Shown: piece by piece, positions 3,002 through 7,680 of the stretch
Position numbering within the stretch: the first letter of the stretch is position 1
How the letters are laid out: each line of letters begins with the position of its first letter
Source of the DNA: Syntrophomonadaceae bacterium
Lineage (GTDB): Bacteria > Bacillota > Dethiobacteria > DTU022
NCBI GenBank assembly: GCA_003558195.1
Contig: PWMM01000100.1
Span: forward strand, 1 to 24,724
Direction: 5' to 3'
Length of the DNA stretch: 24,724 nt
Notes under the pieces: model-generated
Told to the model about the DNA's origin: nothing
Seen by the model: the letters and a program-made list of their open reading frames with translations, nothing else
Databases searched by the model: none
Position numbers and translations under genes: made by a program

Positions 3002-4060
3002 TTAAGGTTCCTCCATGTATCGTCTTGGATTAACCGGGGATCCTTTATAGTGTACTTCGTAGTGAAGATGTGTTCCTGTAGTACGTCCGGAAGCTCCCAT
3101 ATATCCAATAGTTTGGCCTTTTTCCACAATATCACCTTTATTAACTGCGAAACCATCAAGGTGGGCATAGTAAGTCTCATAACCCGAGCCATGATAAATT
3201 ATTATCAGGTTGCCAAGGCTTCCCCGGTAACCCAGGAAAGTAACTTCTCCATTGGCGCTAGCTCTTACCTTAGAGCCGTGTGCACCGGCGATATCGACCC
3301 CGGTATGAAATTGATACCCACCGGCATAGGGAATGCTTCTTGTGCCAAAACCAGAGGTAACTCGCCCCCTTGCCGGCCACAAAGAAGGTTTAGACATAAT
3401 CTCTTCAAGTCTTGTTTCAATTTTCCCGATATATAATTCAACTTCATCTAGCGTATCAATTTGCTCGGGGATTACACCATGTAAAATGGTGATATTTTCA
3501 AATGCTCGATTAAACAGCATGTTTGAACTTGAATAATTACTGTATGATTGTGAAAAACTGTCAAAACTGTTATAAGGTTGTTCTAAGATGGTATATTCTG
3601 CCGATGATACAGCATTACTGTAGCTTCCTGTCTGATTATCCTGGTTAGAAAATCTGTAACGGCTTGAATCTTGAAAGGTTTTTCTGGTGGCGGTGATCCG
3701 GGTTTGAATGCTTTCTACATCATCCAATATATCAACATCATCAATCTTTTCTGTGATCTCTTCAATTAACTCATCCAGCTCCAATATCTGGTTCATTGCT
3801 TTTTCAGTTTCTATTGCAAGCGCATTAATTTCTTGTTCTTGGGCCCGGTTGATCTGGCGTAAATCTTCAACCTGGCTTGCTTCTGCTGAAACTTTTAAAA
3901 ATGAGTAACCCAAAAACGTGGAAGATGCTATTATAACTAACAAGAGCATAATTGCAAGCTGGATACCATAAAATGGTATACACAGGCTAAAGGTTGACTC
4001 CTCTGAATGAGGGATAACCATAATTGTAAAGCAACGTTTTTTGTTGTTTTCAGGTGCCAT
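3002..4060 (-). CDS. Membrane-anchored M23 family metallopeptidase (peptidoglycan hydrolase/activator)
   Basis: N-terminal FTIMVIPHS plus TM segment and coiled coil; C-terminal HTGVD (HxxxD), YAHL, GRTTGTHLHYEV (HxH). Confidence 0.93.
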   Translation of the reverse strand: MAPENNKKRCFTIMVIPHSEESTFSLCIPFYGIQLAIMLLLVIIASSTFLGYSFLKVSAEASQVEDLRQINRAQEQEINALAIETEKAMNQILELDELIEEITEKIDDVDILDDVESIQTRITATRKTFQDSSRYRFSNQDNQTGSYSNAVSSAEYTILEQPYNSFDSFSQSYSNYSSSNMLFNRAFENITILHGVIPEQIDTLDEVELYIGKIETRLEEIMSKPSLWPARGRVTSGFGTRSIPYAGGYQFHTGVDIAGAHGSKVRASANGEVTFLGYRGSLGNLIIIYHGSGYETYYAHLDGFAVNKGDIVEKGQTIGYMGASGRTTGTHLHYEVHYKGSPVNPRRYMEEP

Positions 4061-4251
4061 ATTTTATGATCTAATTCCTTTTTTAGCCTTTTAAAATAAG
4101 ACAATACAATTATGACTGTAATCAAACCATACGCACTTGTCATTATCTTTTATTCTTAACTAAAAGCTTAAAAATGCTAATTAGCAAAGCATAAACAAAG
4201 GATTTTATAACAATAGATAAGATAAATCATGTATTATTTTATATGTTTAAT

Positions 4252-4268
4252 GTTACAATAAAATTACA
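4252..4268 (-). promoter_or_regulatory. WalR (YycF)-type binding box TGTAAT-N5-TGTAAC
   Basis: Minus strand reads TGTAAT TTTAT TGTAAC, matching TGTWAH-N5-TGTWAH, about 190 nt upstream of and co-oriented with the M23 gene. Confidence 0.65.
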
Positions 4269-4433
4269 GTAAAGCCAAGTCTAAAAGTACAGAATCTCGT
4301 ATCAAGAAAACGCATCCTTAATTGAAGACATTTACACTGTTTTCATTTAGCTTTTCTTTATATAAATAGATGATGGAGTGGTTTTTTTGAAATGCTTAAA
4401 TAGCAATTTAATATATTGGAAAGGAGTGGTCTT

Positions 4434-5183
4434 ATGAGATCAAATAACATGGAAGAATGCCCGTATTGTAGAGAAAAAATAGACAGTAGTGATCCTAAAT
4501 GTCAATATTGTGATTCTATGCTCGATAATAATGATTCTTTTACGGGAGAGTCCGTAAGAAAAAAAAGGCCTGCCCAGAAGATTACCATTGTTAAATCTCC
4601 CAGGAAGAAATGGCTTTTATGGGTACCGGTGCTATTGATTCTAATTGTTTCTCTTGTCTTTTTAGGAGAATCATTAGCAACGCCTGATGACGATTTTACT
4701 GTAGCTGATGATGATGGTGAACTAATAGATGAGGATGCTGAAGAAAGCATTTTTGGAGATGATTTAGAAGTAACAGATCTTGATCAGCCCGGGAATGATC
4801 TAGAGGAAGCTGAATTTGCGGAAGATCTAGTAACAGTGGATTCTATAAATCGAAAATATGAACCTAAGTTTGAGGCTTTAGAAGATGAAATAACTGCTGA
4901 ACTAATCAAATTGTTTAATGCTGCGATGCAAGAATATGAACAGGCTAACGGGGGAGTTCTTTTTCAACTTCAACTGGTTAATAAATATATGAGAAAAGTG
5001 CGCCAAGTTGAAAGCAGGGCAGACGAAAGGTTTTATAAGATCCTCGACCAGATGGAAGAAGAATTGGTGGAGAACGATTTGTCTACCGCTATTATTTCTG
5101 AGTTAGAGGAGGACTACTTAAGAGATAAGCAGGAGAAAAAACGTGAGCTAACTAATTTTCTTCAAAATCCTAACCTCGACTAG
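4434..5183 (+). CDS. Hypothetical membrane protein: N-terminal zinc ribbon (CPYC...CQYC), one TM helix, acidic linker, helical C-terminal domain
   Basis: Two CxxC pairs; WLLWVPVLLILIVSLVFLG TM; D/E-rich tract. RBS GGAAAGGAG favours ATG 4434 over TTG 4416. Confidence 0.85.
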   Translation: MRSNNMEECPYCREKIDSSDPKCQYCDSMLDNNDSFTGESVRKKRPAQKITIVKSPRKKWLLWVPVLLILIVSLVFLGESLATPDDDFTVADDDGELIDEDAEESIFGDDLEVTDLDQPGNDLEEAEFAEDLVTVDSINRKYEPKFEALEDEITAELIKLFNAAMQEYEQANGGVLFQLQLVNKYMRKVRQVESRADERFYKILDQMEEELVENDLSTAIISELEEDYLRDKQEKKRELTNFLQNPNLD

Positions 5184-5290
5184 CTCGTTCAAAAAGGACT
5201 GGATCCATTAGCCGTGGAAATTGAAATGGCGGTATCTTGACTCCTTATCATAAAAAGGGGTTGACCAAAACTCTAAAGGAGGTACTGCCA

Positions 5291-5368
5291 GTGTCAGAAT
5301 GTCACAAGGCTATTGAACAGTTTACAGTTAAAAGTGATTGGATTTCTAAACTACAGGCCTTATATTGA
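5291..5368 (+). CDS. Possible 25-aa peptide (MSECHKAIEQFTVKSDWISKLQALY)
   Basis: Strong SD AAGGAGGT (5276-5283) 7 nt before GTG 5291; stop TGA 5366-5368. No family recognised. Confidence 0.4.
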   Translation: MSECHKAIEQFTVKSDWISKLQALY

Positions 5369-5503
5369 TAAACCGTTAGCGAAGCAGCGGGTTCTCTAAA
5401 AGATTGTTAAAAACTTGCACAGTGGTTTTTTCAGGATTAGAACATATCTTGCCATTTTAGGTAAGGCTTTTAGCCAGGGGCTTGATTTTATATTGCAAAA
5501 CAG

Positions 5504-6025
5504 GTGATGGAAATGGCTAAATCCGGTGAATATACGGTCAAAAGATTTCTGGAAAGCAAAAATCTAAGGGTAGAAAAAATTCCTGAAATAGATATCAAAA
5601 CGGCTGATTTCGAAGTCTATAATAACAATAAGTTGCTCTGCTTTTTAGAAGAAAAAACTATTGATTTCACCCTGCCTGTTTGGAATAACGAAATGGCTTT
5701 CTTTAATGCATTGGCTAAACATATTTATGAATCTATAAAACAGTTTAAAAGTATTAATCCCGGCAAAAAAGTTCCCAATGTATTGTCTTTAACAAACCTG
5801 GTTCCGGCCAGATCAATTAATGATTTATTCATTACACTAACCGGCCAGATCATAACTTCAAAAGGTAAACTGCGCTCTATTGATAACATGAAACGAGTTG
5901 AAAAAGATTTAGCACTCATTGATCTTTATCTCTGGTTTGATAATGATCAATATTCCGGCTACATTTGCGATGAAGAGCAATCTCCAATGGGAGAAAAAGT
6001 CGCCCGGGTGATGGGGCTTAATTAA
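5504..6025 (+). CDS. Hypothetical protein with PD-(D/E)XK nuclease-like motif
   Basis: E9...T-A-D35-F...E49-E-K51 pattern (numbered from GTG 5504). The real start may be ATG 5507 or 5513. Confidence 0.7.
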   Translation: MMEMAKSGEYTVKRFLESKNLRVEKIPEIDIKTADFEVYNNNKLLCFLEEKTIDFTLPVWNNEMAFFNALAKHIYESIKQFKSINPGKKVPNVLSLTNLVPARSINDLFITLTGQIITSKGKLRSIDNMKRVEKDLALIDLYLWFDNDQYSGYICDEEQSPMGEKVARVMGLN

Positions 6026-6034
6026 AGGAGATCT

Positions 6035-6646
6035 CTAATTGGGTTGATAATGTATATTATGCTCAAGAGAAGGATCTTGATCTTTTTGAAGATCCCACCA
6101 TTCACTTCCAAGGTTACTTTCATAAGTGATGCCAAACTCATTTTTAAGCCCTCTTATGATCTGGTTATAGCGGTTCATTAGCTCAACTTTTCTTTCCTGG
6201 TTGGCACTCTGATACTCTTCTTCGATTGCTTGTAAAGCCTCTTTGGCTTTCTTAACATTTTTATCTTCAGATGGATCTATACTTTTTTGATCTAAGCTAT
6301 CGTTGACTGAAGAGGTATCCATTGCCTGGAGGTTTTGGTTTTGGTCTTGATTTGCAACAGGTTCTTCATGATCATTAGCGGTGTTAATATCCGGGTCTGC
6401 TAATATTGTGGGTTGATCAAGATCCTGCTCAAGCGGTTCTTCTGAAAGTGACTCCAAGCTATCATTATAATCAGGTTCTATAACAGCACGGTGGCTCATG
6501 TGCAGCCAACCAGGGAGACCTCTCTTTGCATTAAAGCTTTCCAATTCTGAATTATTTGTTTGTTGATGATCAATAAAATCACAGCCGCCAGTTATGATTA
6601 GCATTATTAATAATAGTATATAACCCTTTTGCTTACATACAATCAT
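6035..6646 (-). CDS. Hypothetical putative lipoprotein
   Basis: RBS CAGGAG; basic then hydrophobic N-terminus ending ITGG-C (imperfect lipobox); low-complexity D/Q/E/N linker; C-terminal helical segment. Confidence 0.7.
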   Translation of the reverse strand: MIVCKQKGYILLLIMLIITGGCDFIDHQQTNNSELESFNAKRGLPGWLHMSHRAVIEPDYNDSLESLSEEPLEQDLDQPTILADPDINTANDHEEPVANQDQNQNLQAMDTSSVNDSLDQKSIDPSEDKNVKKAKEALQAIEEEYQSANQERKVELMNRYNQIIRGLKNEFGITYESNLGSEWWDLQKDQDPSLEHNIHYQPN

Positions 6647-6932
6647 AACGCTTTCTCCTGATTTTTAGAAAATAGGCATCGATTGTTTTTCAGGAAAGCA
6701 ACATCAAGACCAATTAAACTGAAGCTTATTAAAAAAATGGTCTCTTAATATGCATCAGTGGATTTTCAACGGGGTTTATTTCAATAAAAAATAACCCCTA
6801 TTAAAATACTTTTTTCTTAGAGTTGAAGCTAATAATAAATGCCTCTAGTTTTATAAATAGATGGTAGTATTTATTAAAGTGCAAATCGTTTAAATCATAT
6901 TAAGTAAAGAGATGCTCATTAATTTAGTACAA

Positions 6933-7052
6933 TTAATTCAGGATGTTTATGAGCCACTCAATAAAGTCAAATGCATCCCTGTAATCACAACCTGTTAAAA
7001 AAAGTGAACCGAACAGCAACACAAAAAATGCAAAATACCAGGTTTTATTCAT
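6933..7052 (-). CDS. 39-aa mini-lipoprotein (MNKTWYFAFFVLLFGSLFLTGC-DYRDAFDFIEWLINILN)
   Basis: Manually translated. GGAGG (7065-7061) 8 nt before ATG; canonical signal peptide II with LTGC lipobox; TAA at 6935-6933. Missed by the ORF track. Confidence 0.7.
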   Translation of the reverse strand: MNKTWYFAFFVLLFGSLFLTGCDYRDAFDFIEWLINILN

Positions 7053-7093
7053 TTTTCGTTCCTCCAGTTTATCTATTCTTAATCTTTATTTTA

Positions 7094-7117
7094 CTATAAA
7101 TGTGCTCACATTTATAG
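7094..7117. repeat. Perfect inverted repeat CTATAAATGTG-CT-CACATTTATAG (operator or stem-loop)
   Basis: 11-bp arms with 2-nt spacer, between the chrA2 stop (7150) and the mini-lipoprotein RBS. Confidence 0.8.
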
Positions 7118-7149
7118 CAGTAAACTTTTCTTATTTGAATTTATGATCT

Positions 7150-7680
7150 TTAACTAAAAACAAATCCTCCATAAATTAATGCTGCCAATAGAATAAAGCC
7201 TGGATGAATGTTGAATTTTTCTAAGCATAGTAAACTAATAAAGCCCATCAATATAGTATGCGCAAAACCGATTTGATTATATGAATCCTTTAAAAAGCTG
7301 TAAGCCATGATTGTGAGCATAACAGCAATAGCTGGTTAAACAAAAACTGTTAGCCTTTTCACACGAACGGAGTCTCTATACCGGTAGAGGATGCTTAAAA
7401 GTGCTATCATTAAAAGCAGTGAAGGTACAACAGTAGCTAGTAAGGCTACAATCCCTCCTGTTATCCCTCCTACTTCATAACCAATATATGCTGCCATTTT
7501 AGTAGCAATTGGACCCGGTAAAACATTTCCAAACGCCAGTGCTTCTCCAAATTCCACCCTGGTTAACCACCCATAACGGTGAACCACTTCATATTCTATT
7601 AAGGGGATTGCAGCCGGTCCGCCACCATATGCGATTATCCCCGGGATAAAAAAAGCAAGAAATATTTGCCAGTATATCAA
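7150..7680 (-). pseudogene. chrA: Short-chain chromate transporter (CHR), second subunit, interrupted by in-frame TAA at 7338-7336
   Basis: YGGGPAAIP and LPGPIATK motifs. Reading past the stop gives PAIAVMLTIMAYSF...NIHPGFILLAALIYGGFVFS* in the same frame, for a full-length 176 aa. TTG start overlaps the upstream TGA. Confidence 0.85.

Follow-up and report, generated by a model that had tools for sequence, protein, structure and literature searches.

Entericidins A and B (EcnA/EcnB of E. coli, together with Atu8019 of A. tumefaciens) share a common build, a very short prolipoprotein whose mature part is approximately one amphipathic helix, and Atu8019, a bona fide protein of the entericidin family, showed no lytic activity (PMC7296081). 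Enterococcal pheromones are hydrophobic peptides of 7-8 residues, which LspA and Eep release from the signal peptides of lipoproteins (PMC4173765). The colicin lysis or bacteriocin release lipoproteins are small too, with a mature part of a few dozen residues, and LptM (YifL; NF047847), the lipoprotein chaperone of the LPS translocon, is likewise tiny and has its function in the few residues past the lipid anchor. The precursors of the enterococcal pheromones are lipoproteins of ordinary size, and the signal is a by-product.

Here we describe a gene for a 39-residue mini-lipoprotein from an uncultured haloalkaliphilic soda-lake Firmicute that is related to Dethiobacter. The window, i.e. the whole stretch of DNA analysed, comprises 24,724 nucleotides (GenBank assembly GCA_003558195.1, contig PWMM01000100.1, positions 1 to 24,724). 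The host genome (G000) is a metagenome-assembled genome of 2.02 Mb in 342 contigs and 77.6% complete, and it was compared, among others, with G001, another species-level genome of the same genus. The T3Sed10 data set, from the sediments of hypersaline soda lakes, holds over 50 such genomes with Dethiobacter-related 16S genes (PMC6146748). The features of the locus are as follows:

6933..7052, minus strand: mini-lipoprotein gene, 39 codons plus TAA (ORF list and sequence; five variants, all of 39 aa)
6935..6933 and 7052..7050, minus strand: its stop codon TAA and its start codon ATG, respectively (sequence)
7061..7065, minus strand: Shine-Dalgarno sequence GGAGG, 8 nt before the ATG (sequence and spacing unchanged in four of four aligned loci)
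6990..7052, minus strand: predicted type II signal peptide, residues 1-21, with L-T-G followed by Cys22 (lipobox pattern, conservation, lspA/lgt in the genome)
6936..6989, minus strand: mature part of 18 residues, a putatively lipid-modified Cys followed by a predicted anionic amphipathic helix (conservation, dN/dS, hydrophobic moment, AlphaFold2)
7088..7093, minus strand: candidate own promoter, a conserved -10-like hexamer TAnAAT without a canonical -35 (alignment of four loci)
6035..6646, minus strand: acidic lipoprotein of 203 aa, whose long acidic linker is disordered and whose C-terminal helical region is conserved (neither Pfam nor NCBIfam gave a family above cut-off)

The precursor carries a Lys at position 3, hydrophobic residues at positions 4-19 and the lipobox L-T-G-C, with the Cys as residue 22. 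An earlier note, made from the letters of this stretch alone, had claimed a strong GGAGG ribosome-binding site, a type II signal peptide ending in LTGC, then only the Cys with a short tail and a stop, and a product of which over half is signal peptide. All of the elements it listed were found in the sequence (GGAGG at 7065..7061), and the signal peptide accounts for 21 of the 39 residues (54%), leaving 18 mature residues including the Cys and 17 after it; the sole correction is the minus strand, which the note had left unstated. The exact 39-aa sequence is present in the gene-call collection, where it has no name. About 37 nt before the start codon, the TAnAAT block is kept in four loci including L016, in which the upstream gene is a gamma-glutamyltranspeptidase (GGT) and not chrA. 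The block thus travels with the mini gene and may be read as its own promoter. A consensus promoter scan called neither a canonical promoter nor a terminator for the mini gene, and a search of Rfam over positions 6400-7400 gave no match. On the plus strand, a 42-aa antisense ORF (window 6971..7099) overlaps the mini gene and is open in G000 and G001. In two of the four loci it is interrupted by stops or lacks its start, and the sense frame alone is open in all four; the antisense ORF is therefore a shadow of the sense frame.

Five distinct variants of the mini-lipoprotein were compared (G000, G001, P0001, P0002 and P0009), deriving from two species-level genomes and from soda-lake metagenome contigs. 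The G001 copy, recovered by a six-frame search of relatives, encodes an 85% identical protein with length, stop and neighbours as in G000. P0001 (locus L016) stems from an NCBI metagenome assembly, P0002 (locus L017; 65% identical) from the Logan assembly of run SRR490128, and P0009 differs by one residue from the window's own protein. The gene call of P0002 starts at an upstream ATG; the inner ATG, 8 nt after the invariant GGAGG, gives 39 residues. A JGI soda-lake sediment contig carries a copy that is 100% identical, an ENA contig contains a called 39-aa gene in the same slot, and scans of the genome-contig and metagenome-contig collections yielded one further locus each.

All five variants have 39 codons and an identical stop position, and the 39-aa length as well as the lipobox, whose conservation in relatives the earlier note had proposed to check, are kept throughout. 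Between G000 and G001, DNA identity is about 87% within the ORF and near random directly after the stop codon. At the protein level, the two genomes are 85% identical in the mini-lipoprotein, 81-95% in the adjoining chromate transporter and 58% in the 203-aa lipoprotein. Nei-Gojobori dN/dS for the whole mini gene ranges from 0.12 to 0.37 over the comparisons (0.12-0.13 against G001 and P0001), with dS reaching about 0.7-1.0 at a dN of 0.05-0.15; these selection statistics agree in direction but rest on few sites, the family consisting of two species-level genomes and a few metagenome contigs. For the mature part dN/dS is about 0.05-0.15 against the more diverged partners (0.05-0.07 against G001 and P0001), for the signal peptide it is 0.2-0.7, and the h-region evolves faster than the mature tail. 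Within codons 15-33, nucleotide variation is confined to third positions (nine of nine variable sites; binomial P about 5e-5). The stretch G-S-L-F-L-T-G-C is invariant across all variants and belongs to an invariant block from G15 to W33 that covers lipobox and tail together. The first 12 mature residues are invariant except for one E/D position, and the last six vary with retention of the hydrophobic/polar pattern. At the level of sequence comparison, these data establish the mini gene as real, conserved in length and under purifying selection on its protein sequence.

The query of the word-index protein search comprised the 39 aa plus one extra upstream residue. No longer homologue was found in the word-index search restricted to longer proteins, nor in an exhaustive profile search of 1.84 billion representative proteins, which returned the query's own cluster and one spurious match (P0006, 2279 aa, rejected as a homologue: the match adds up from 14 repeats of a short G-S-I-T-N-T-G-C-D-Y-like motif). 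When 115 genomes of the order were searched with the profile in six frames, the gene was detected in two, G000 and G001; the one extra match was confined to the signal peptide of a 353-aa ORF. Much longer homologues sharing only the N-terminus, the outcome that the earlier note had named as speaking against its reading, were thus not seen in any search. No Pfam family matched at E<=0.01, and NCBIfam gave sub-threshold matches to lipoprotein signal-sequence models over residues 1-22 only. In G000 the gene is single-copy and has no tandem paralogue. ESM Atlas look-ups returned nothing usable for the mini-lipoprotein and, for its neighbour, generic 'putative lipoprotein' clusters at chance-level scores. 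Judged by these searches, the mini-lipoprotein constitutes a new, very small family outside the entericidin, colicin-lysis and LptM families, and its gene appears restricted to one lineage of a few closely related genomes.

Several lines of evidence bear on its nature as a lipoprotein. The product has the positive n-region, hydrophobic h-region and lipobox ([LVI][ASTVI][GAS]-C) of an Lgt/LspA substrate, and the host encodes both enzymes: lspA and lgt are adjacent in G000 and G001 (PF01252 and PF01790 above cut-off). A Cys at position 22 is typical of Gram-positive lipoproteins. The lipobox pattern alone is cheap evidence, since 140 short ORFs (25-60 aa) in G000 fit the Gram-positive pattern used here (after G+LPPv2); only two of these 140, the mini gene among them, combine it with GGAGG at the right distance. 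Lipoprotein processing of the 39-aa product is therefore likely, as far as can be read from its sequence and its host's gene content. Because the invariant block joins lipobox and tail, conservation by itself is no proof of cleavage. A search of three genomes of the genus, including one that is 100% complete, gave no Omp85, and the host looks single-membraned. The presence of lgt and lspA and the lack of a detected Omp85 in these three genomes would place the anchored product on the outer face of the cytoplasmic membrane.

The mature tail has a net side-chain charge of -3. Its hydrophobic moment is 0.47-0.53 with a maximum at 100-105 degrees per residue, within the top 3-4% of shuffles, and AlphaFold2, run on a four-sequence alignment, predicts two helices (residues 2-19 and residues 24-38) that are interrupted at the lipobox (pLDDT about 75-79). 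Both results agree with the amphipathic helix that had been suspected from the alternation of residues in the tail. On a helical wheel one face is wholly hydrophobic (L, A, L, I, Y, I, F), and the other bears D, D, D, E, R, N, N along with W, I and F. In this model the tail is predicted to fit an interfacial helix lying on the membrane, with the mixed face free for contact.

In five of five loci, a gene for a lipoprotein of 203-206 aa follows the mini gene on the same strand, at a distance of about 290-310 nt. In the window it corresponds to the second lipoprotein-like gene with a GC-D start noticed previously (6035..6646, ..GGC-D). An acidic residue directly after the lipid Cys is common among the predicted lipoproteins of G000, so that the shared 'GC-D' start is nothing special. 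Upstream of the mini gene, four loci have two short chromate-transporter genes, and L016 has the gamma-glutamyltranspeptidase. Past the 203-aa lipoprotein follow a 170-aa ORF, a zinc-ribbon membrane protein with a weakly TcaA-like N-terminus and an M23 peptidase; this cluster of M23 peptidase, zinc-ribbon protein, 170-aa ORF and 203-aa lipoprotein (window 3002..6646) recurs in L016 and L040. The larger lipoprotein also occurs in two other genera (36% and 25% identity), where no mini ORF lies upstream, and hence it does not need the mini gene. In G013, of the same genus as the host, the slot after a 171-aa ORF goes straight into a universal-stress-protein gene and holds neither the mini gene, the 203-aa lipoprotein gene, the chrA pair nor the GGT gene. 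The copies in other genera and the G013 slot show that the lipoprotein pair is part of a variable segment and the mini gene a younger addition. With chrA and GGT on the same variable segment, co-inheritance does not single out the pair.

By our own reading of the alignment, a promoter-like element precedes the 203-aa lipoprotein gene in at least three of four loci, and the two genes may not form one operon. No intrinsic terminator was found between them, and folding of the spacer in four loci revealed no conserved hairpin. The spacer of the window contains a G+C-rich hairpin (6765..6800) that is followed by a T-rich run on the plus strand only; it is not conserved at the three other loci, and the terminator scan did not call it. 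Co-folding of mini-lipoprotein residues 10-39 with the mature 203-aa lipoprotein gave a score of 0.00, which, obtained without controls, speaks neither for nor against binding. An origin of the mini gene by partial duplication of its neighbour's 5' end finds no support, the neighbour ranking 6th of 38 predicted lipoproteins in signal-peptide similarity.

Two side observations concern a neighbouring gene and a gene outside the window. The second short chromate-transporter gene (window 7150..7680, minus strand) is split by an in-frame TAA at 7338..7336. Over 432 nt, an independent contig from a soda lake (L025) differs only in having AAA (Lys) in place of this TAA, and the G001 gene is intact (176 aa); the TAA is a single-base variant or an assembly error, not gene decay. 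On contig C265 of G000, a 214-aa ORF encodes a paralogue-like lipoprotein that has an L-P-E-W-L-L..H-R motif in common with the 203-aa neighbour and resembles the copy in G016.

We consider, with slightly better than even confidence, that the locus is a lineage-restricted gene for a 39-residue prolipoprotein yielding a lipid-anchored helix that serves as accessory or partner of an envelope protein. We infer the lipidation, cleavage, helical fold, location and function of the product as follows. The precursor would be exported, Lgt would add diacylglycerol to Cys22 and LspA would cut before it, leaving an 18-residue lipopeptide in the outer leaflet of the cytoplasmic membrane. There it would form one amphipathic helix at the membrane surface, its hydrophobic face dipping into the lipid and its outward face, rich in Asp, Glu and Asn with one Trp, being exposed. 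As a small surface accessory or partner the lipopeptide might then bind an envelope protein, for which the 203-aa lipoprotein is the first candidate. We put forward such an accessory or partner function tentatively, from the invariance of the residues next to the anchor, the mixed face of the helix and the constant position beside the 203-aa lipoprotein gene in a neighbourhood of envelope genes; a free toxin or signal is, in our opinion, less likely.

Other explanations deserve to be weighed against this one. The product might be an uncleaved small membrane peptide, with an N-terminal transmembrane helix and an acidic tail outside, acting as a regulator or in the manner of a type I toxin, so that the lipobox would be incidental. 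Hydrophobic residues 4-21 are long enough to span a membrane, AlphaFold2 draws residues 2-19 as one helix, and the conservation of L-T-G-C is inseparable from that of the whole G15-W33 block. We nevertheless find this unlikely: the lipobox is a perfect match and invariant, with its Cys at position 22, and the h-region drifts freely (dN/dS 0.2-0.7 for the signal peptide against 0.05-0.15 for the tail), as expected of a disposable signal. The strong, exposed GGAGG and the lack of a conserved antisense ORF or an Rfam element also do not fit a type I toxin layout. A membrane-active lipopeptide resembling entericidins or lysis proteins (toxin or antidote), or a bacteriocin immunity lipoprotein, would have the same general build of a tiny lipoprotein with a mature part of one amphipathic helix (PMC7296081). 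Build alone predicts little, as illustrated by the absence of lytic activity in Atu8019 (PMC7296081), and this peptide is anionic (-3), single-copy without tandem paralogue and matches neither the Entericidin nor the colicin-lysis Pfam families (E<=0.01), while the conserved neighbourhood contains no bacteriocin, toxin or dedicated transporter gene. The proposals of an entericidin-like effector and of an immunity factor, both raised in the earlier note, find no support in any of the tests made here, and we regard this class of functions as distinctly unlikely. Its third proposal, the precursor of a peptide signal, either released from the cleaved signal peptide in the style of the enterococcal pheromones or from the tail, fares no better. 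All variants share G-S-L-F-L-T-G as the last seven residues of the signal peptide, and a gene given over mostly to a signal peptide would make an economical precursor, yet invariance before the Cys is equally expected from lipobox recognition. The most constrained part, moreover, is the mature tail, which a pure signal-peptide precursor would not need, and the h-region evolves faster; no receptor-type regulator, oligopeptide-binding gene or conjugative element was seen in the conserved neighbourhood, and we judge a signalling role improbable.

The constant same-strand position upstream of the 203-aa gene, with no intrinsic terminator in between, would also be compatible with a regulatory upstream ORF whose translation or export tunes the downstream lipoprotein. 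Against this stand a spacer of about 290-310 nt that is poorly conserved and has neither conserved structure nor an Rfam match, and a selection at the amino-acid level that is stronger across the tail than is usual for a leader peptide; the idea is very improbable. Least credible of all is that the ORF arose by chance or is what remains, without function, of a longer lipoprotein, the latter being the alternative that the earlier note itself had offered. The distribution is indeed very narrow (2/115 genomes of the order), and C-D-..-D-F-I-E weakly resembles the C-D-F-I-D start of the neighbouring lipoprotein. However, the five variants are equal in length and stop, dN is low (0.05-0.15) against a dS of about 0.7-1.0, and the neighbour is only 6th of 38 in signal-peptide similarity. 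The remnant reading is rejected because three kinds of search yielded no longer homologue.

Going beyond the accessory or partner role, the gene could encode a newly evolved, species-group-specific lipopeptide with an active role at the cell surface of an extreme alkaliphile, for example in self-recognition or signalling, or as a membrane-surface element that traps cations or protons. We give this idea only a small chance. If true, the lipopeptide would be among the smallest functional lipoproteins known, and the locus would present a recent gene birth beside an older lipoprotein gene. With a mature part of 18 residues, it is in any case near the lower end of the size range of bacterial lipoproteins. 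Proteins this small are routinely overlooked or mistrusted, and here comparative evidence alone demonstrates that selection maintains a gene of 39 codons. For the present its practical use is limited, as few uncultured genomes carry the family.

Compared with the entericidins, the mini-lipoprotein has an anionic tail, 18 mature residues versus 32 in Atu8019, and no family match; its host apparently has one membrane, there is no tandem toxin/antidote pair, and the downstream gene is unrelated. It differs from the colicin lysis and bacteriocin release lipoproteins in lacking a Pfam match, a bacteriocin operon and a plasmid context. The LptM model (NF047847) was the only named model that scored, with 15 bits against a cut-off of 27.7 and over the signal peptide only, and in a genus without detected Omp85 (three genomes) there would be no outer-membrane machinery to serve. 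As in the precursors of the enterococcal sex pheromones (cAD1, cCF10; LspA/Eep/PptAB), the lipoprotein signal peptide of the mini-lipoprotein ends in a hydrophobic segment that is conserved; in contrast to them, constraint is strongest in its mature tail, and no genes for a pheromone response were seen nearby. A second mini-lipoprotein family of the genus, represented here by two loci, has the same build:

L033:1495-1620 (G000, contig C218), minus strand: 41-aa mini-lipoprotein with L-V-G-C and a Glu/Pro-rich acidic tail
L003:1474-1599 (G014), minus strand: 41-aa mini-lipoprotein of the same family

This family shares the GGAGG start signal, and its signal peptide is the one most similar to that of the 39-aa mini-lipoprotein in the genome, while its tail is an unrelated low-complexity sequence rich in E and P. 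In both genomes the 41-aa gene is followed, about 280 nt downstream, by genes for an OmpR-type response regulator and a histidine kinase. Of 15 genomes of the genus, at least 8 have short-ORF homologues of the 41-aa family, versus two for the 39-aa family. With two such families in one genus, lipid-anchored peptides may recur as an element of the cell envelope in these abundant anaerobes of soda lakes.
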